From positions 1 through 64,000 of IMG/VR virus record IMGVR_UViG_3300033513_000001: a DNA stretch of 64,000 nucleotides; one strand, 5' to 3'. The notes below the pieces were generated by a model, which was not told the DNA's origin, made no database searches, and saw nothing but the letters and a program-made list of their open reading frames with translations. Origin of the DNA: a virus. Taxonomy: Duplodnaviria; Caudoviricetes. This document shows, one piece after another, positions 2,911 to 9,606 of this stretch. Position numbers and translations under genes: made by a program. Positions within the stretch are counted from its first letter, which is position 1. Each line of letters starts with the position of its first letter.

Positions 2911-3405
2911 ATGCCGAACCCACACCCCACTGATGGAACCGCAAATCTAAAAGACTTCCAAGAGGGCGAGGACAAACGCCGCACCCTCAAAGGACGCAAA
3001 CCGCGTTACGAAATCGCCAAAATCATTGAGGAACGCGGAGCGCGTCTAAAGGACGATGACCCCGAAGGGCGTACTATCGCGGAAGCCGCTGTTGACGCTA
3101 TGTGGGAAAAGGCCCAAGTGGGCGATGGCACGGCGGTCAAGGCATTTGCAGAGTTAGCCAAGTATGGTTGGGGTACGCCAGAAGTCAAGGACGTTCGGCA
3201 AGTCCTGTTGATGATTGTGGCTGGCGCTCAACAAAGGGGCTTGAATCCAAGCGATGACCCAGTTCTCGGAGCAATCTTCGCCGCAGCAGATTATAGAGTT
3301 CCTAAGCTCGCTTCGCCCAGACCAAATGAGCGAGATAGTTCAAGCGAGATTCAAGCAACTCGATCAGGCGAAACAGACATCGTGGACGCCGAAGCAGTTT
3401 CCTGA
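2911..3405 (+). CDS. terS: Terminase small subunit (probable)
   Basis: Directly upstream of TerL. N-terminal 'F.EG...GRKP' and 'A.GD..A.K.(L)...G' patterns typical of DUF5681-like small terminases. Confidence 0.65.
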   Translation: MPNPHPTDGTANLKDFQEGEDKRRTLKGRKPRYEIAKIIEERGARLKDDDPEGRTIAEAAVDAMWEKAQVGDGTAVKAFAELAKYGWGTPEVKDVRQVLLMIVAGAQQRGLNPSDDPVLGAIFAAADYRVPKLASPRPNERDSSSEIQATRSGETDIVDAEAVS

Positions 3406-4879
3406 CAACTCTGTCGTAACAGAGGAAGGGGAAATTCTGCCGTTCAATCCCGCTCAGAAGGCAACCTATGAGGCTGACACACGCATGGTTGCTCTTATCT
3501 CAGGCCCGCAACTTGGCAAGACCTGCCTGTCACCGATTTGGATGTGGCGCGAGATTCAGCGGCTTGGCAGAGGGACATATCTTGCTGTGTCCAACGACAT
3601 GGATATGTTCAAGCTCAAGATGTTGCCTGTTTACATCCGATTGTTTGTTGAGCATCTTGATGTGGCCCGCTATTGGGCATCCGACAAGCTCCTAGAGATT
3701 CGCAATCCCCACACAGGCGAATTTGAAGCCCAACACTCTCAAGACAAGATGTATGCCCGCATCATCCTGCGTTCTGCTGATGACAAGGGCGGCATGGAAT
3801 CGTCCACCGCTCAGGCTGTTCACATGGACGAGGCGGGGCAAGAAAACTATGACCTAGAACTGTGGAAGGCGACTAGGCGCAGGATTGCCGTCAAGCGCGG
3901 CAGAGTCCTCATCACAACCACTCTCTATGGCCTTTCCGCTTGGTTGCAAAACACAATCATCAACCCTGCGGAACTTGGCGGGGAGCAACAGCTTTTTTCC
4001 TTTGAGAAGGGCGAGATGATTATTACTCGCAATGAGGCTTCGGGTATTACTCTCGTTCAGGCTGACTCCACCCTCAACCCAAGTTTCGAGGTTGAAGAGT
4101 TTGAGGAAAACCGCGCCTCAATGCCTGATGATGAATTTCAGATGATGTATCGTGGCCGCGTGACTACTCCCCGCGACCTCATCTACGATTGCTTCGGCCT
4201 CAAGAATCTGTGTGGTCGCTTTGACCCGCCTCCTCACTGGCAAAGGGTCTGGGGCATTGACTTTGGCGGCGTCAATCTGGCGTGCGTCAAGATGGCGCGT
4301 AACCCCGAAACGGGCGTCTATTACCTCTATGGCGAGTATCACGCGGGCGGAAGGTCTGCGTTGGAGCACGTCGCAGAGTTGATGCGGGGCGAGAGCAACC
4401 GTAGTGTCATGTGCTTCGGCGGGGCACGAGCCGAGGAAAGTTGGCGCAACGAGTTCGCTGCCGCTGGCTTGGTCGTCATCAAGCCGCCGTTTGATGACCT
4501 GTGGCTTGGCATCCAGCGGGTCTACGCGCTGTTGAAAAAGGGCGAGTTGGTGATTTTCAATGACTTGCCTGGAACCCTCAAGCAGTTGAAAGGCTATCGG
4601 CGCAAGAGGGACAGGTCAACGGGAGAGAGTTTGATGGAAGTCGAGAAGAAGGCGACGGCGCACTACTTGGACAGCCTTCGTTATGTCACAGTCGGAATGT
4701 CGGAAGTGGCAAGCCCAGACTCTTGGTTGTCTTCGGAAATGAAGGCTCTCGGACTCATCAAGGAGAGCGAGGAAAACAAGCCGCCCGTTCCATCCAATGC
4801 AGAGTTATTTGCAAGACTACAGTCTGGGAAATTAGGTGTTGACAATATTTCAGGTAGGGCTTATAATATTCTCAAGTGA
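3254..4879 (+). CDS. terL: Terminase large subunit
   Basis: Walker A GPQLGKT, Walker B VHMDEAG, coupling motif LITTT, RuvC-like GIDFGG and C-terminal HYLDSLRY. The start could be 3254 or 3326. Confidence 0.9.
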   Translation: MTQFSEQSSPQQIIEFLSSLRPDQMSEIVQARFKQLDQAKQTSWTPKQFPDNSVVTEEGEILPFNPAQKATYEADTRMVALISGPQLGKTCLSPIWMWREIQRLGRGTYLAVSNDMDMFKLKMLPVYIRLFVEHLDVARYWASDKLLEIRNPHTGEFEAQHSQDKMYARIILRSADDKGGMESSTAQAVHMDEAGQENYDLELWKATRRRIAVKRGRVLITTTLYGLSAWLQNTIINPAELGGEQQLFSFEKGEMIITRNEASGITLVQADSTLNPSFEVEEFEENRASMPDDEFQMMYRGRVTTPRDLIYDCFGLKNLCGRFDPPPHWQRVWGIDFGGVNLACVKMARNPETGVYYLYGEYHAGGRSALEHVAELMRGESNRSVMCFGGARAEESWRNEFAAAGLVVIKPPFDDLWLGIQRVYALLKKGELVIFNDLPGTLKQLKGYRRKRDRSTGESLMEVEKKATAHYLDSLRYVTVGMSEVASPDSWLSSEMKALGLIKESEENKPPVPSNAELFARLQSGKLGVDNISGRAYNILK

Positions 4880-4890
4880 CATTTGTCACT
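4839..4890 (+). promoter_or_regulatory. Perfect consensus promoter followed by a palindromic operator
   Basis: TTGACA(4839-4844)-N17-TATAAT(4862-4867) inside the 3' end of terL, then AGTGACATTTGTCACT at 4875-4890. Confidence 0.8.
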
Positions 4891-5095
4891 TGACAGGAAG
4901 GGGGCGAAGTGGACATTTCGGACACCGCGTTGTTGTCGGAGCAATTTTTCTCCAGATTGCCTAAGCAATACAACTGGCGTCCCAAGCCCGACATCACCGT
5001 CTATGAATTGGCGTTAGCCGTTCCCGTCCTGTTGCTTCGGCTCTATGACATAGAGACGGCGGTCAAGAGCCTTCCAGAATCGGTACAGCGCCACT

Positions 5096-5353
5096 TTGAG
5101 GAAGCTGTCTAGGAGGTCAATCGTGAGTTTCTTGGAATTTCTCAAGTTCTTCTTCTCGGACGCCTCGCGTGTAACTGCCTTCGTCGGTCTGCTGGTCAAC
5201 ATCGCTATTTGGGTAGGCGCTCGGTACTTCCCCAACCTTCCCGTTGACATCATCAAGGCCATTGGCGCATTCGTTGAGATGGCGCTGATTGCGTGGGCAG
5301 GCTATAGTTCTGGCGTGAAGGTTGAGCGGGCGAGGTCATTGAGAGTCAAGTGA
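5096..5353 (+). CDS. Small two-TM membrane protein (holin-like)
   Basis: Two hydrophobic segments and a basic C-terminus in 85 aa. Confidence 0.5.
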   Translation: MRKLSRRSIVSFLEFLKFFFSDASRVTAFVGLLVNIAIWVGARYFPNLPVDIIKAIGAFVEMALIAWAGYSSGVKVERARSLRVK

Positions 5354-5375
5354 CACGGCCCGTTTCGTTTTTTGT

Positions 5376-5450
5376 GGCGCGGCCCGGTCTGGCAGGGCAG
5401 GGCTTTGTCAGGCAGTGCAAGGCATGGTCGGGCGAGGCATGGCAAGGAAC
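5376..5450 (+). repeat. Pentamer array A: 15 phased xGY-NN units (putative guide ncRNA)
   Basis: ggcgc ggccc ggtct ggcag ggcag ggctt tgtca ggcag tgcaa ggcat ggtcg ggcga ggcat ggcaa ggaac; intergenic. Confidence 0.85.
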
Positions 5451-5472
5451 ACTTTTTCAGTAGGGGGCAAAG

Positions 5473-5646
5473 TTGAACGAAAGAGAGTTCCTAGTAGAAT
5501 TTAGGCAAATCGTTCTGCATCTTGCGGACTTGATTGAACGCAAGTTAGATATGCGTCCGAGAACATCGGAACTCAGGCGCGAATGGAAAGAGCGCCATAA
5601 AAAGGAAAGCCAAGATGGACTTCAGCAAGTGCAGAACGGACAATGA
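5473..5646 (+). CDS. 57-aa hypothetical protein (not in the ORF track)
   Basis: GGGGGCAAAG RBS-like element then TTG; reads LNEREFLVEFRQIVLHLADLIERKLDMRP...NGQ-stop and overlaps the next start. Confidence 0.55.
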   Translation: MNEREFLVEFRQIVLHLADLIERKLDMRPRTSELRREWKERHKKESQDGLQQVQNGQ

Positions 5647-6013
5647 GTGGTGGGAACTTTACAACAGGTATCTTCAAACTAATGAGTGGCGACAGAGGCG
5701 AGAAGAAAGACTCGCCATTGATGGGCGCAAGTGTGTTGTGTGTTCAAGTGGCGAGGATTTGGAAACGCATCATCGCCACTACAAAACGGTTGGAAACGAG
5801 AATGCCTTGACTGACTTGGTGACTTTGTGCAAAAGACACCATGAGGCAATCACAAATTCTGACCGAGAGAATCGTTACCAACGGCGAAAGCCGATTCTTG
5901 TAGACGTTGTGTCTACGTTCACCCGAAAGGAGTCTAGTCATGTCGTACCAGAGTTTGTCGTTCAAGATTGTCGGCGTTGCACCCCTCATTATGCACAATG
6001 GGCAGACGGCTGA
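5615..6013 (+). CDS. HNH endonuclease (paralogue 1)
   Basis: CVVC...ETHHRHY..VGNE...DLVTLCKRHH: zinc-binding HNH signature. Confidence 0.85.
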   Translation: MDFSKCRTDNEWWELYNRYLQTNEWRQRREERLAIDGRKCVVCSSGEDLETHHRHYKTVGNENALTDLVTLCKRHHEAITNSDRENRYQRRKPILVDVVSTFTRKESSHVVPEFVVQDCRRCTPHYAQWADG

Positions 6014-6512
6014 CCCACTCAACCATTTCGCAAAAGAGATGAAGAAAATCACCTCTAAGCGAATGAAAACCGATGCTGACTTAGAGCAACTTGCAAAGAT
6101 TGAGTGGTATGCGTCCCTGTACACTAACAACGGAAAACCATGTATTCCGTCTGAGGTGATTGAGTCCTGTTTCACCGAGGCGGCAAAAAAGACCAAGAGC
6201 GGCAAGAAAGCTCTTATCGGCTTCTATTGTCCGGCGCACTCGGAGCTTATCTATGATGGCCCAAGTGACCCAGAGGAAATGTGGAAAAGTGACAAATTCC
6301 GCTTCACCACTGCGGTCAGGCTGAACGGTAGAACAAAGGTCATGCGAACGCGATGTCGCTTTGAGCAGTGGGGCGCGACCATCGCTGTGATGTTTGACCC
6401 TAGCACATTCAATGAGCCAGAAATCTTTGACATTCTGAAAACGGCAGGCGAGGTCATTGGCCTGTGTGATTGGAGGCCGAAGTTCGGAAGGTTTCAGGTT
6501 TCAATTGAATAG
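5940..6512 (+). CDS. Standalone RAMP/Cas7-like RNA-binding protein (Vipr-like)
   Basis: AAGGAG RBS and ATG 5940. N-terminal beta-strand 'FKIVGVAPLIMHN', 'CIPSEVIESCFTEAAK' helix and C-terminal Gly-rich loop 'AGEVIGLCDWRPKFGRFQV', matching the RAMP pattern. Flanked by pentamer arrays. Confidence 0.75.
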   Translation: MSYQSLSFKIVGVAPLIMHNGQTADPLNHFAKEMKKITSKRMKTDADLEQLAKIEWYASLYTNNGKPCIPSEVIESCFTEAAKKTKSGKKALIGFYCPAHSELIYDGPSDPEEMWKSDKFRFTTAVRLNGRTKVMRTRCRFEQWGATIAVMFDPSTFNEPEIFDILKTAGEVIGLCDWRPKFGRFQVSIE

Positions 6513-6520
6513 AATCGCGG

Positions 6521-6595
6521 GGCGAGGCGCGGCGCTGTCGGGATAGGCATGGTCGGGCAGGGCGTGGCTTGGTGGGGTGAGGTAGGGCGTGGATT
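6521..6595 (+). repeat. Pentamer array B: 15 phased xGY-NN units
   Basis: ggcga ggcgc ggcgc tgtcg ggata ggcat ggtcg ggcag ggcgt ggctt ggtgg ggtga ggtag ggcgt ggatt; begins 9 nt after the RAMP-like stop codon. Confidence 0.85.
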
Positions 6596-6622
6596 AGGAA
6601 TCATTCTTGATTCACTCAATTT

Positions 6623-6772
6623 GGTTTGGCGGTGCTAGGCTGGGCATGGTGCGGCAAGGTGTTGCTGAGTCTGGCAGGGTTGGGTTGGGCGCAGTTGCGT
6701 GCGGTCTGGCGAGGCGTGGCGCAGCGAGGCGTGGTCAGGGTTGGCAAGGCGGGGTCAGGCATGGCATGGGTT
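6623..6772 (+). repeat. Pentamer array C: 30 phased xGY-NN units
   Basis: Unbroken 5-nt register from ggttt(6623) to gggtt(6768-6772); G at position 2 in all 30 units. Separated from array B by a 27-nt AT-rich linker. Confidence 0.85.
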
Positions 6773-6795
6773 TACTCAAGTTGAACAGTAGGACG

Positions 6796-7104
6796 ATGAT
6801 TGTTACTCGCCAGTTTCTAAATAGCCTTCTGCGGGGCGCGACGTTTGACTTTTCCAAATGTCGCACGAACGACGAGTGGTGGCGGCTCTATCGGCTCTAC
6901 CTGCAAAGCCCGCAGTGGCGAAGGAAGCGGGAGGCGCGGCTCATTCTTGACAGACATCGGTGCGTGAAGTGCAACGCGATGAGGCGGCTGGAAGTCCATC
7001 ACTTGAGTTACCGCAACGTTGGGAACGAGCCGATGGATGACTTGCGGACGCTGTGCAAGGACTGTCACGACGGAGTGACGGAGAAAAGTAGGGGGCATAA
7101 GTGA
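6796..7104 (+). CDS. HNH endonuclease (paralogue 2)
   Basis: DFSKCRTNDEWW...CVKC...EVHHLSY.NVGNE..DDLRTLCKDCH. Likely start is ATG 6796; the longer ORF-track N-terminus is just array C translated. Confidence 0.85.
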   Translation: MIVTRQFLNSLLRGATFDFSKCRTNDEWWRLYRLYLQSPQWRRKREARLILDRHRCVKCNAMRRLEVHHLSYRNVGNEPMDDLRTLCKDCHDGVTEKSRGHK

Positions 7105-7491
7105 CACCAGAACAAGAATACCGTGAGGCGCTAATCCGCATCTCTACATTGATTCCATTGCTTGAGGACACCTTGCACGATATGGAGCACAACCCACTTG
7201 TCAAGTTGTCCTATGCGATTGTGGCAAAAATGGGATTAGCGATTCCAGATTCTATCTATTCGCTAGGGTGCAAGTCGAATGACCAAGTGTGACTACTGCC
7301 AATCACGCAACGATGACAAGCAAGAATTGTGTAGGCATTGCGGTGCGCCGTTGCCTCTGGTCATTCCGCGAGTTGACGACAACTTTGAGCGCAACAGCGG
7401 GAAGTTGTATTTAGCGCCAGAGTCAACATGGATAGCGTCAACGTGTAGCACTAGACCGTCCGCCACATCATTCGCCATTTACTTGACTTAG
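7101..7491 (+). CDS. Two small hypothetical genes (7101-7292; 7279-7491 zinc ribbon)
   Basis: Overlapping chain; CDYC...CRHCGAPL in the second. Confidence 0.5.
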
Positions 7492-7497
7492 GGGGCA

Positions 7498-8328
7498 TTG
7501 GGATTGTTTTCTCTCAGGAGTTTCTTTCCCGATGTTTCAATCCGAATCTGTGACATCGGCGCATCGCCCCATGAGGGCAACCTGATACCCTACGGCAAAC
7601 TGGTTGAGGACGGCGTTGCAACCGTCATCGGCTTCGAGCCGTTGCCAGAGGAATGCCGCAAGTTCAATGAGGCCAACCCGAAACTCAAGTGCCTGCCCTA
7701 CGCCGTTGGCGACGGGAAAGAGGCAACGCTCCACAAGTTCTTCGCGCCAGGGATGGCAAGTCTTTTACAACCGAATAGGGAACTTCTGTCCTACTTCGTC
7801 GGCTTTGATGACTGGCTTGAGCCAAGAGGCGAGGCGCGAGTCCAGACACATCGTTTAGATGACCTAGAAGAAGTCGGCGCGGTGGACTACTTGAAACTGG
7901 ACACTCAGGGAAGCGAGTTGACCATCCTGCAAAACGCCGAGAAGGTCTTGCGCGATGTCCTGATTATCCACACCGAAGTCCAGTTCTTGCCGATGTACTT
8001 GGGCCAACCGCTGTTCGGTGACATTGACTCGTTCCTGCGGAGCGCGGGATTTGTCCTGCACGTCTTTGGGATGAAGAATTTTAGGTTTGTCGCCTTGCCC
8101 GATGCTCTATCGAGGCACGCGGCTGAGGCCGATGCGGTTTACGTCAAGGACTTTACCAAATGGGACGCGATGCAGATTGAGAGCCTGAAAAAGACGGCGC
8201 TGGTCTTGCACGACTTGTACAGTTCCTACGCGCTGACGACTCTGGCGCTCAAGTGCATTGACGACAAAATCAACACCAAGTTCCGACAGAGGTATATTGC
8301 GCTTTTGGAGAAGGGGGCAAAGAGGTGA
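7498..8328 (+). CDS. FkbM-family SAM methyltransferase
   Basis: ICDIGAS, VIGFEP, RLDDL..V..VDYLKLDTQGSELTIL, IHTEV motifs. Confidence 0.85.
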   Translation: MGLFSLRSFFPDVSIRICDIGASPHEGNLIPYGKLVEDGVATVIGFEPLPEECRKFNEANPKLKCLPYAVGDGKEATLHKFFAPGMASLLQPNRELLSYFVGFDDWLEPRGEARVQTHRLDDLEEVGAVDYLKLDTQGSELTILQNAEKVLRDVLIIHTEVQFLPMYLGQPLFGDIDSFLRSAGFVLHVFGMKNFRFVALPDALSRHAAEADAVYVKDFTKWDAMQIESLKKTALVLHDLYSSYALTTLALKCIDDKINTKFRQRYIALLEKGAKR

Positions 8329-8800
8329 ACTGGCTTAGTTATCAATGGAATCGCATTGGATGGCGGTTCTTTGAGTCTAGAGTTCCAAAGCCTTTCCCGC
8401 TCAACAAATGGGTCAGATACGGATGGGCAGAGTGGCACTATCGGACTTCTGACATTCTGGCCCATATCCATTGGGATAGGTTCACAAAGAAGTGGCGAGC
8501 GCAGTCACTCAATTGCAATGTAAATAGTGCCAACTTCGGGCATCGTGTTGATGCTAGTCGGCATGACACCAAGCAAGAGGCAATGTTGCACTGCGAGAAA
8601 TTGAAGTTGGAGGCAACCAAGTGAGCCTTGTGACTGGCGCTTCGGTCATTTACGCCATTGCTTTTCTGATTGTCATTTTTCTGTATCTAGTCCTTGATGT
8701 TGTTCTAGTAATCGGAATAGTGAAAATTGAGCGCGAGCGGCGGAAGATAGAGAAAATCACGGTTCGCATGAGGAGCGAACTAAAGGGGGCAACCAAGTGA
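8325..8800 (+). CDS. Hypothetical protein (8325-8624) and single-TM protein (8621-8800)
   Basis: GTGA overlaps; long hydrophobic run in 8621-8800. Confidence 0.5.
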
Positions 8801-9606
8801 AATTCAACCCACGCATCGCCATTTGCCGTTTCGCCTATGGTGGTTCAGAGTCCAGCGATGAAGAGAATTGGGTCATTCAGACAACGGCCCACTGTGCCAA
8901 AAACAAGATTTCTCTGACCCATTGTGTCTATGATGACACACCCGCTCCGATGGTGCGGAATCGGGCGGTCAAGGATTGCCTTGAGGCTGGCATTGACCTG
9001 ATGTTCTTTTTGGACAACGATATGTTTCCCGACATAGAGCCGGATAGCAATTTCTTTGACAGCGCGATTCAGTTTTACATAGAAAGGTTCTACAAGGAGC
9101 CAACCGTCATCGCGGCTCCCTATTGCGGCCCGCCGCCGAAGGAGATGGTCTACATCTTCCGATGGCGGGGCTACCAGTCGGACAACCCGAATCCCGACTT
9201 TGACCTGAAAATGTACACGCGGGAAGAAGCGGCAGAACGGCGGGGGCGTGAGGCGGTCGCGGCGCTGCCCACTGGCCTGATGGCTATTGACGCTCGAATC
9301 TTTACGGGATTCGATGTGAAAGACGAGAAGGGCGACACCTACACGGTTGGGCTGCGACCGCCTTACTTCTACTATGAGTACAAGGACGAGTTCCAAACGG
9401 ATAAGGCCAGCACCGAAGATGTGACGTTCTCCCGCGATGTCTCGCTCCTGTATGGGCAATACGGTCTACAAGTCGTGTGGGTGGATTGGGACAGTTGGGC
9501 GGGACACTGGAAGCGCAAACTGGTAAGCAAGCCTGTCAAGATTGACCCCGGTGGGCTGGCTAAGTTGTTCAAAGAGGCTGTTGCGGGGGCACAACGCAAG
9601 GAGTAA
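8797..9606 (+). CDS. GT-A fold glycosyltransferase-like protein
   Basis: VRNRAVKDCL, LMFFLDNDM (DxD), GLMAI and EDVTFSRD motifs. Confidence 0.7.
   Translation: MKFNPRIAICRFAYGGSESSDEENWVIQTTAHCAKNKISLTHCVYDDTPAPMVRNRAVKDCLEAGIDLMFFLDNDMFPDIEPDSNFFDSAIQFYIERFYKEPTVIAAPYCGPPPKEMVYIFRWRGYQSDNPNPDFDLKMYTREEAAERRGREAVAALPTGLMAIDARIFTGFDVKDEKGDTYTVGLRPPYFYYEYKDEFQTDKASTEDVTFSRDVSLLYGQYGLQVVWVDWDSWAGHWKRKLVSKPVKIDPGGLAKLFKEAVAGAQRKE

Follow-up and report, generated by a model that had tools for sequence, protein, structure and literature searches.

Within the 64,000-nt stretch of phage DNA analyzed here (the window), part of a genome of 89,430 bp, we found a compact locus in which a gene for a RAMP (Cas7-like) protein, three arrays of pentameric repeats, and two genes for small HNH proteins all lie on the same strand (Table 1). 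The initial annotation of this DNA, made from its letters alone, had described three tracts of phased pentamers around a 190-amino-acid (aa) open reading frame (ORF) whose Gly-rich C-terminal region carries IGLCDWRPKFGRFQV, the whole flanked by small HNH genes. The tract coordinates and all pentamer counts proved exact upon recount, and both the ORF with its C-terminal region and the two HNH genes were confirmed.

Table 1. Genes and other features of the locus, numbered from the first nucleotide of the window
Feature	Coordinates	Strand	Remarks
Consensus sigma-70 promoter, TTGACA-17-TATAAT	4839..4867	+	12/12 matches
vrRNA array 1	5376..5450	+	15 GGY-NN units; terminal unit GGAAC
Predicted 3' hairpin	5442..5495	+	Begins in last array 1 units; -15 kcal/mol, z -3.1 against shuffles
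57-aa ORF, interval between array 1 and HNH-a	5473..5646	+	No Pfam or PHROG match; no counterpart in related loci
HNH-a, HNH nuclease gene, 132 aa	5615..6013	+	Overlaps vipr start by 74 nt
vipr, RAMP (Cas7-like) protein, 190 aa	5940..6512	+	Assigned by homology, PHROG, and predicted fold
vrRNA array 2	6516..6595	+	15 units from 6521, 16 with CGCGG at 6516; terminal unit GGATT
Predicted 12-bp hairpin	6589..6615	+	Begins in array 2 terminal unit; -12.5 kcal/mol, z -2.7
vrRNA array 3	6623..6772	+	30 units; register differs from that of array 2; terminal unit GGGTT
HNH-b, HNH-a paralog, 102 aa	6796..7104	+	Directly 3' of the arrays

Pentamer arrays and the Vipr protein

Together, the three tracts comprise 60 pentamers on the + strand, each tract keeping one single 5-nt register in the same orientation as vipr. 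Position 2 of the pentamer is G in 60/60 units, position 1 is G in 51/60, and position 3 is C or T in 55/60. Positions 4 and 5 are near random, with entropies of 1.95 and 1.94 bits and 15 different dinucleotides; the NN string of array 1, for example, reads GC CC CT AG AG TT CA AG AA AT CG GA AT AA AC. We scanned the complete 89,430-bp genome on both strands for runs of loosely defined units. Runs of 15, 16, and 30 units were confined to the three tracts, all remaining runs comprised at most 6 units, and the longest runs in 20 shuffled genomes comprised 6 to 8.

Arrays of this kind are known from VIPR (Viral Interference Programmable Repeat) systems, which were described in bioRxiv preprints of 2026 (10.64898/2026.04.26.720920,.720927) and which the initial annotation had correctly named as phage loci built on GGY/NN guides. 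Published vrRNAs consist of 9 to 16 tandem GGY/NN (YNNGG) repeats followed by a structured, invariant 3' tail (bioRxiv 10.64898/2026.04.26.720920,.720927). Array 3 is longer than this range unless it contains two guides, and it may consist of two guides of 15 units each, which would meet at the degenerate units AGTTG CGTGC (6693-6702). The hairpin predicted at the end of array 1 is a candidate for the 3' tail, or for a cap, of vrRNA1, and the one predicted at the end of array 2 is a candidate 3' tail of that array. The tails following arrays 1 and 2 have no sequence in common, and folding against shuffles predicted no significant structure 3' of array 3. The arrays of relatives likewise finish in a GG-purine unit.

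We also looked for a ribozyme or other known RNA family between the arrays and found none, Rfam returning no family match in 5000-7500, CRISPR repeats and hammerheads included. As had been noted from the sequence, no CRISPR repeat family and no further cas-like gene is present at the locus (Pfam, PHROG, and Rfam searches of 4800-7600). The consensus promoter upstream of array 1 is the likely start of a transcript that would span the whole locus, and no convincing + strand terminator was found between this promoter and position 7104.

The 190-aa protein is homologous to a Vipr of solved structure. Residues 6-189 align to residues 4-189 of PDB 36pp_D, entitled "SUSP1 Vipr protein" (E 5.5e-28), and the two proteins are ~34% identical over their full length. 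The protein also matches phrog_4652 (E 1.7e-51) and 130 phage records, Felixounavirus phages among them. The RAMP/Cas7-like fold suggested for it earlier is borne out by an AF2 model (pLDDT 94.5); the PDB matches listed by Foldseek for this model are chains of CRISPR effector complexes, Csm3 for the most part, and their E values reach down to 3e-6.

Homology extends to the residues that hold the RNA. In the cryo-EM structures of SUSP1 Vipr, the residues contacting GGY or DNA are H17, K33, R39, K82, R138, D177, W178, and R179 (bioRxiv 10.64898/2026.04.26.720920,.720927). When the two sequences are aligned, the same residues are identical here (H19, K35, R41, K83, R138, D177, W178, and R179), and all of these except K83 are invariant or nearly so in 39 homologs. 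In the Y3 pocket, E72 aligns to SUSP1 E71, and V73 stands in place of M72. As expected of a VIPR, then, the protein combines residues holding G1, G2, and Y3 with a minimal RAMP fold (RRM core, Gly-rich loop, and thumb).

In the solved Vipr, one protomer occupies each pentamer of the GGY/NN RNA, and the NN pairs form a discontinuous guide (bioRxiv 10.64898/2026.04.26.720920,.720927). A GGY gripped by each subunit and a guide spelled by NN pairs had been proposed for this locus as well, and homology to SUSP1 Vipr supports that proposal; the protein should polymerize on GGY-NN RNA. Given that VIPR is already published and that the homology is full length, the class is not new, a possibility for which the initial annotation had allowed: by sequence, the locus is a member of VIPR.

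The HNH genes and the clade of related loci

To place the locus among its relatives, we fetched 45 related loci. In most of these, vipr is followed on its own strand by GGY-NN arrays, in agreement with the earlier expectation that homologs would be accompanied by 5-nt-periodic tracts. The Vipr studied here belongs to a clade of 27 rows (support 99/96), in 23 of which an HNH gene lies immediately upstream of vipr, often overlapping it, and whose loci neighbor baseplate, tape-measure, head, DNA-polymerase, and Mu-F genes. The Viprs of five isolate phages (wV8, LittleE, Medea1, LESphi2, and MakoManhole) form a separate clade (support 100/99), and their loci carry a downstream vap1-like gene. At the vap1 position of our locus, the arrays directly follow vipr, and a phmmer search with five vap1 proteins against all ORFs found no homolog at E <= 1 in the 89-kb genome.

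The adjacent vap gene with a DNA-related function that is expected of a VIPR locus is represented here by the conserved, overlapping HNH gene upstream. HNH-a and HNH-b both score slightly below the Pfam gathering threshold for HNH (18.2 and 21.3 bits, respectively, against a cutoff of 21.4), and both match PHROG HNH families (E down to 3.7e-10 and 7.6e-11, respectively). An alignment of the HNH family shows the CxxC, HH, and CxxH residues to be invariant. Among solved structures, the closest to the family profile is the HNH domain that HNH-Cascade carries as a fusion to its RAMP protein Cas5/CasD (E 3.8e-9), followed by IscB. HNH-a is a candidate accessory (vap) effector. The family also has a conserved "AQRxD" motif at the C terminus, which we rejected as independent functional evidence because it is an alternate-frame reading of conserved vipr codons (MHNGQTAD).

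HNH-b is 51% identical to HNH-a (E 4e-30). No related locus has a second HNH gene within 3 kb. HNH-b is not conserved in relatives, and in the HNH layout only this second paralog after the arrays is particular to this phage. To that small extent, the earlier idea that a layout flanked by HNH genes could be new holds. An upstream HNH gene is the rule in the clade, and an HNH-domain Vap already appears in the discovery preprint, in the legend to its Fig. S21 (bioRxiv 10.64898/2026.04.26.720920,.720927).

A comparison with 50,697 phage records yielded no near relative of the phage itself. No TerL relative exceeds 50% identity, the few named ones being Chloroflexota and Acidimicrobiales MAGs, and the window contains no tRNAs. 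A TIGR-Tas-like locus is also present on the same phage, which may be useful as a model of two unrelated RNA-guided systems in one virus.

It is conceivable that the HNH genes have no part in the system. The locus would then be a VIPR that only silences transcription, as that of SUSP1 does, and both HNH genes would be unrelated passengers, either homing endonucleases or terminase-associated HNH genes of cos-type packaging. HNH genes are common in phages as selfish or packaging genes, and a large terminase gene (3254-4879) lies directly upstream of the locus. The HNH proteins also match phrog_4581, annotated as small terminase, and the solved phage HNH 5h0m; HNH-b is without counterpart in relatives, and the VIPRs characterized to date repress rather than cut. 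Nevertheless, HNH and then vipr, often with overlapping frames, is a recurrent order amid very diverse neighbors (baseplate, DNA polymerase, and head genes, for example), which is unexpected for a packaging gene or for a homing gene that moves freely. Moreover, SUSP1 needs vap1 in vivo, and no vap1 is available here as an accessory. We consider silencing alone unlikely for this locus, although it deserves to be kept in mind.

Searches for targets of the guides

We examined whether the guides match DNA of the phage itself or of other genomes. The phage is not a target of its own guides: the best match in its genome scored 20/30, and shuffled guides scored 20-23. The VIPR preprint likewise reports guides without a match in their own genome (bioRxiv 10.64898/2026.04.26.720920,.720927). 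Other sequences were searched with exact sub-windows of the guides, namely, seven 8-unit windows in IMG/VR, two 10-unit windows in genome_contigs, and one 10-unit window in metagenome_contigs, and none of these searches yielded a natural target above chance for any guide.

In IMG/VR, units 7-14 of the four guides gave 13, 2, 19, and 25 hits, of which the best full-guide score was 24/30; we discounted this score because 16 forced matches plus chance suffice to produce it. Units 1-8 of vr1, vr2, and vr3b reached 23/30 at best. The 10-unit window of vr3b had 0 hits in genome_contigs, and that of vr3a had 1 hit in metagenome_contigs, at 23/30.

The 10-unit window of vr1 found 2 homologous hits in genome_contigs, both in the 23S rRNA gene of Acidobacteriota MAGs, one hit in each of two MAGs. 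Their scores are 25/30 and 24/30, with units 5-15 perfect in the better one. We rejected this match as evidence of a target, since it is at chance level and lacks support from the remaining three guides, which have no match in those two genomes. A 20-base pattern should occur about once by chance in 596 Gb, and we calculate that tens of sites scoring at least 25/30 are to be expected in genome_contigs. The 23S site occurs in 1 of 401 sampled Acidobacteriota genomes. Finally, a comparison of all guides with 50 related loci gave a best score of 22/30 and no sign that rival vipr or HNH genes are targeted.

Proposed mechanism and relation to known systems

For this locus, we computed homology, fold, conservation of the RNA-contact residues, array anatomy, HNH-vipr synteny, and phage context, and we infer guide transcription and processing, RNP formation, HNH recruitment and activity, and the identity of the target. 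Transcription, probably starting at the 4839 promoter, would yield one long + strand RNA with three or four vrRNAs of ~15 GGY-NN units each, along with the three genes HNH-a, vipr, and HNH-b. Each Vipr protomer would bind one pentamer and bury its GGY, and the exposed NN pairs would read double-stranded DNA by the published rule, in which two bases are read and one is skipped. The resulting Vipr-vrRNA filament would bind a rival mobile element inside the infected cell. Beyond mere silencing, the HNH nuclease would most likely nick or cut the bound target, given that in this clade an HNH gene translationally overlapped with vipr takes the place of vap1.

Taken together, these observations leave us highly confident that the locus is a VIPR system from a vap1-less branch in which an HNH gene overlaps vipr, and that its bound target is probably nicked or cut. 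A more specific proposal, which we advance only tentatively, is that this is a phage-borne, nuclease-armed branch of VIPR whose filament brings the HNH protein of the overlapping gene onto rival DNA and cuts it; in this phage, the two diverged HNH paralogs might each nick one strand, together giving a double-strand break.

It is very improbable that the locus instead belongs outside VIPR, as a new class of RNA-guided system with a standalone Cas7-like protein at its core, which was the bolder reading in the initial annotation. Such a class could account for the lack of a CRISPR repeat near the gene and for accessory genes and 3' tails unlike those of SUSP1, but the Vipr homology is direct and full length, conserved GGY-contact residues included, and the repeat grammar is identical to that of published vrRNAs. 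In addition, the discovery preprint already describes seven VIPR types, with HNH-bearing ones among them (bioRxiv 10.64898/2026.04.26.720920,.720927). We can practically dismiss the idea that the tracts are coding low-complexity sequence or structural repeat DNA rather than RNA genes: although a 165-aa ORF (6607-7104) is open from TTG 6607 across array 3 into HNH-b and two + strand frames are free of stops in 5354-5472 around array 1, the constraint has a period of 5 nt and not 3, stops occur in each of the three frames of the interval 6513-6795 (arrays 2 and 3), these two arrays are in different registers, dozens of unrelated phage contigs have homologous arrays flanking vipr, and HNH-b has its own ATG and Shine-Dalgarno sequence at 6796, where its homology begins.

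If a nuclease-armed VIPR is indeed encoded here, RNA-guided DNA destruction by a RAMP protein and an HNH nuclease already existed inside viruses. The VIPRs characterized by experiment belong to type II and act as silencers, with vap1. The present locus is a complete, clean, and high-confidence example without vap1, and the vap1-less HNH branch as a whole sits in phage genomes. The question of whether phage VIPRs cut DNA, beyond repressing it, can be addressed with this 1.7-kb cassette. With a 190-aa protein, an HNH protein of 100-130 aa, and a 75-nt guide, it is also a compact candidate for programmable cleavage.

Several known systems resemble the locus in part. With type II VIPR, found in Escherichia phage SUSP1 and a Pseudomonas fulva prophage (bioRxiv 10.64898/2026.04.26.720920,.720927, 2026.10.15.759431; PDB 36pp), it shares a homologous Vipr, GGY-NN arrays that run in the direction of vipr and flank it (one upstream, the rest downstream), carriage by a phage, and the absence of a self-target. 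Unlike type II VIPR, it has no vap1 in the genome and an HNH gene that overlaps the start of vipr, its Vipr falls in an HNH-associated clade apart from the five isolate-phage loci with a vap1-like gene, and one of its arrays runs for 30 units without a predicted tail. Whereas SUSP1 has a pseudoknot tail, the predicted tails here are simple hairpins that begin in the terminal GG-purine unit and are not homologous to it.

In the discovery preprint, types III and V pair Vipr with a predicted nuclease; the authors propose destruction of the target rather than repression and report that nuclease-bearing types are enriched in host defense islands, acting against viruses (bioRxiv 10.64898/2026.04.26.720920,.720927). 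Our locus likewise pairs Vipr with a predicted nuclease and, as far as the preprint text defines type III, resembles that type in its HNH-domain Vap. In contrast to the nuclease-associated types as portrayed there, the locus and its relatives are carried by phage genomes, where structural and replication genes surround them, and do not lie in defense islands.

Outside VIPR, the Csm3/Cas7 backbone subunits of type III CRISPR-Cas have in common with our protein a RAMP fold, a Gly-rich loop, and, as predicted for the latter, fixed-step polymerization along a guide, but sequence identity is only 9-17%, our locus has neither a CRISPR array nor Cas10 or another cas gene, and the step would be 5 nt of RNA and 3 nt of DNA here versus 6 nt there. 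HNH-Cascade, a type I CRISPR effector, cuts its target. In that system (PDB 8yb6, 8zp9), the HNH domain is fused to the RAMP protein Cas5/CasD within a multisubunit Cascade that uses a CRISPR array and a contiguous guide. Our locus resembles it in joining a RAMP-based, RNA-guided DNA-binding complex, here a putative one, to a small HNH protein, and differs from it in that the HNH protein is encoded by a separate, overlapping gene and is combined with a single RAMP protein and a gapped guide.

A VIPR-type array and its Vipr protein

The locus is very likely a VIPR system acting through the published Vipr-vrRNA mechanism. The initial annotation had pointed, with the caution that the class might not be new, to a report of 'VIPR' loci built on GGY/NN guides; this was correct, and the class is already in print, in 2026 bioRxiv preprints on its discovery (10.64898/2026.04.26.720920), its structures (10.64898/2026.04.26.720927) and its use by phage against satellites (10.64898/2026.10.15.759431); in a fourth preprint, entropy periodicity serves to detect VIPR arrays. 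The VIPR preprints describe a vrRNA as a run of 9-16 YNNGG repeats with a structured tail at its 3' end. Each repeat is bound by a single Vipr protomer, and dsDNA is read through the NN pairs, every third base being skipped. A target needs no PAM and may be on either strand; often it falls in coding sequence, with wobble positions as the skipped bases. Satellites, prophages and rival VIPR loci serve as natural targets.

Re-cutting the sequence from 5376, 6521 and 6623 gave 60 pentamers in total and reproduced exactly the coordinates and unit counts of the three tracts first noted, here vrRNA arrays 1 to 3. G occupies position 2 in 60/60 units and position 1 in 51/60, and the third base is C or T in 55/60. 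The last two positions (4 and 5) reach 1.95 and 1.94 bits of entropy and between them take 15 different dinucleotides. A degenerate unit, CGCGG, lies at 6516, directly 5' of array 2. A single virus record of 89,430 bp (G+C 53.9%) contains the window as its first 64 kb, and a loose-unit scan of both strands of this whole genome found runs of 15, 16 and 30 units at the VIPR locus only; all remaining runs had ≤6 units, and the longest in 20 shuffled genomes had 6-8. Coding constraint as the origin of the tracts is ruled out, since the period is five and not three, every one of the three + strand frames of 6513-6795 (arrays 2 and 3) is interrupted by stops, and arrays 2 and 3 do not share a register.

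The vipr ORF is preceded by a GGAG Shine-Dalgarno sequence. Its product matched no Pfam family, but matched phrog_4652 in PHROG (E 1.7e-51), which is annotated as of unknown function. When the sequences of all PDB chains were searched, a single protein matched end to end: 36pp_D, the 'SUSP1 Vipr protein' (E 5.5e-28, residues 6-189 against 4-189). Cryo-EM of SUSP1 Vipr showed that GGY and DNA are held by H17, R138, D177, W178, R179, K33, R39 and K82 (10.64898/2026.04.26.720927). The aligned counterparts here are, in the same order, H19, R138, D177, W178, R179, K35, R41 and K83; across 39 aligned homologues, all of these except K83 vary little or not at all. Because these contact residues align and are conserved, the Gly-rich loop IGLCDWRPKFGRF can be identified as the G-loop, in which the triad D-W-R holds G1, G2 and Y3. 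The RAMP fold proposed at the outset is likewise supported: an AlphaFold2 model built on the homologue alignment (mean pLDDT 94.5) was compared by Foldseek with a PDB copy predating release of the Vipr entries, and all listed matches were chains of CRISPR effector complexes, mostly Csm3 (E to 3e-6, probability 1.0).

Features of the VIPR locus, in + strand order, and of a second candidate locus
Feature	Position	Strand	Details
Predicted sigma-70 promoter	4839-4867	+	TTGACA-17-TATAAT, perfect match; from sequence
(T)AGGGGGC(A/G) motif	4888-4911		gene starting 4909
Small ORF	4909-5112	+	no assigned function
Small ORF	5123-5353	+	no assigned function
Array 1	5376-5450	+	15 units; terminal unit GGAAC
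(T)AGGGGGC(A/G) motif	5461-5475		gene starting 5473
57-aa ORF		+	
HNH-a	5615-6013	+	132 aa; 74-nt overlap with vipr
vipr	5940-6512	+	190 aa
Array 2	6521-6595	+	15-16 units; terminal unit GGATT
Gap between arrays 2 and 3		+	27 nt
Array 3	6623-6772	+	30 units; terminal unit GGGTT
HNH-b	6796-7104	+	102 aa; 3' of array 3
(T)AGGGGGC(A/G) motif	7084-7103		gene starting 7101
(T)AGGGGGC(A/G) motif	7491-7500		gene starting 7498
TIGR-Tas-like locus	52237-54998		36-nt-period arrays
Calcineurin-like phosphoesterase	52431-53327		
TasH-like protein	53874-54809		311 aa

Guides, their ends and their targets

With no convincing + strand terminator found between the promoter and HNH-b, the guides would probably be excised from, or protected inside, a single long transcript. 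The terminal unit of each of the three arrays has a purine at position 3, as in the arrays of relatives. For arrays 1 and 2 a hairpin is predicted that takes this unit as its 5' arm (z -3.1 and -2.7, respectively), and the modeled hairpins may be counterparts of the SUSP1 pseudoknot in its capping role; no comparable structure is predicted after array 3. Two neighboring degenerate units in array 3, AGTTG CGTGC, are exactly units 15-16, so this array may hold two 15-unit guides, which would make four overall. Several IMG/VR relatives have long arrays punctuated singly and in register by GA(C/T)NN units (GATGA, GACGC, GACCC and others; fetched loci L011 3623-4213, L013 3580-4181, L010 and L043), possibly as markers between guides; no such unit occurs in the arrays of the window.

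Scored by the NNx rule (two bases read, one skipped), the four guides reached at best 20/30 against their own genome, with shuffled guides reaching 20-23. This absence of a self-target matches the control of the VIPR discovery preprint. Target searches used exact patterns only, each match being rescored with the full guide. No score rose above forced matches plus chance in IMG/VR with 3'-side 8-unit windows (16 informative bases, four guides) or 5'-side 8-unit windows (three guides), in genome_contigs with 10-unit windows (two guides) or in metagenome_contigs with a 10-unit window (one guide). By the same rule, two Acidobacteriota MAGs matched guide 1 within the 23S rRNA gene, at 25/30 and 24/30 (L110 5983-6017 and L111 702-736), and the guide's eleven 3' units (5-15) were perfect in the better match. 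We rejected this site as a target, as the match is chance-sized in 596 Gb and unsupported by the other guides; it would be of renewed interest if the host were an acidobacterium. The 64-kb window has no tRNA genes, no near relative was found among isolated phages, and TerL relatives, at ≤50% identity, occur in MAGs of several phyla.

HNH genes and neighboring loci

HNH-a and HNH-b are paralogues (51% identity, E 4e-30). Both score just below the Pfam HNH threshold (18.2 and 21.3 against 21.4 bits), match many PHROG HNH families (E down to ~1e-10) and keep the CxxC, HH and C..(C/H)H residues that do not vary in their family. We fetched 38 related loci from IMG/VR and 7 from genomes, encoding Vipr relatives at 34-48% identity. 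GGY-NN arrays lie 3' of vipr on the same strand in most of them, and a minority, including L008 and L011/L012, have an additional upstream array, as here. In a maximum-likelihood tree, the Viprs of five isolated phages, wV8 (Felixounavirus), LittleE, Medea1, LESphi2 and MakoManhole, form their own clade (100/99), each with a mutually homologous vap1-like gene downstream. The window's Vipr falls in another clade of 27 rows (99/96), of which 23 have an HNH gene of ~140-150 aa immediately upstream, frequently overlapping vipr; among the four exceptions, one sequence begins at vipr and L045 has the HNH gene, with an overlap past the scoring threshold.

Genes around the loci of this clade encode baseplate hub, tape measure, major head, head morphogenesis (Mu F), DNA polymerase and exonuclease proteins, and the HNH-vipr pair therefore moves as a unit among differing phage genomes. 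In many relatives the start of vipr and the still-open HNH frame share 74 to ~146 nt (5940-6013 here, 3001-3146 in L009), and this conserved overlap suggests translational coupling. The conserved 'AQRxD' at the HNH C terminus was not counted as independent evidence of function, being the conserved vipr codons MHNGQTAD read in an alternate frame. No vap1 homologue exists anywhere in the 89,430-bp genome, though SUSP1 VIPR requires vap1 in vivo, which makes the HNH gene the candidate accessory gene of this clade. Given the conserved overlapping synteny, the missing vap1 and the HNH-Cascade precedent, we favor, with reasonable though not high confidence, an HNH nuclease effector acting with VIPR over a passenger gene.

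At least four small genes near the locus have upstream of them the motif (T)AGGGGGC(A/G), with a GTG or TTG start codon a few bases further on; the motif is either a strong common ribosome-binding site or a cassette-junction element. Directly 3' of the locus (region 7498-9606) lies an FkbM-type methyltransferase gene (Pfam E 1.4e-20), then an uncharacterised 269-aa ORF and large fibre-like genes. The phage also carries a second RNA-guided candidate locus, which looks like a TIGR-Tas system: arrays of 36-nt period, in which two conserved repeats (GTGTAACCCA... and GTGCGAGCCA...) alternate with each other and are accompanied by short variable segments, flank a protein that matches TasH of known structure (E 6e-15) as well as a protein with an IS110 C-terminal domain (9mty, E 4e-28).

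Relation to known systems

The HNH-flanked layout had been offered as possibly new. The VIPR preprints already show Vap proteins with HNH domains; a second HNH gene within 3 kb is absent from all relatives examined, and HNH-b is peculiar to this phage. Points of interest are a phage-borne nuclease-type VIPR, twin HNH paralogues, hairpin tails starting in a GG-purine unit and a co-resident TIGR-Tas-like locus. The solved structure nearest to the HNH family profile is the HNH domain that HNH-Cascade carries fused to Cas5/CasD (E 3.8e-9); IscB comes next, and then a phage HNH. The preprints recognize seven VIPR types, with a DNA-binding vap1 in type II (SUSP1, P. fulva) and predicted enzymes in types III-V. 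The present locus resembles type III in its accessory gene, but its context, a phage with several arrays, does not fit that type as the preprint text describes it.
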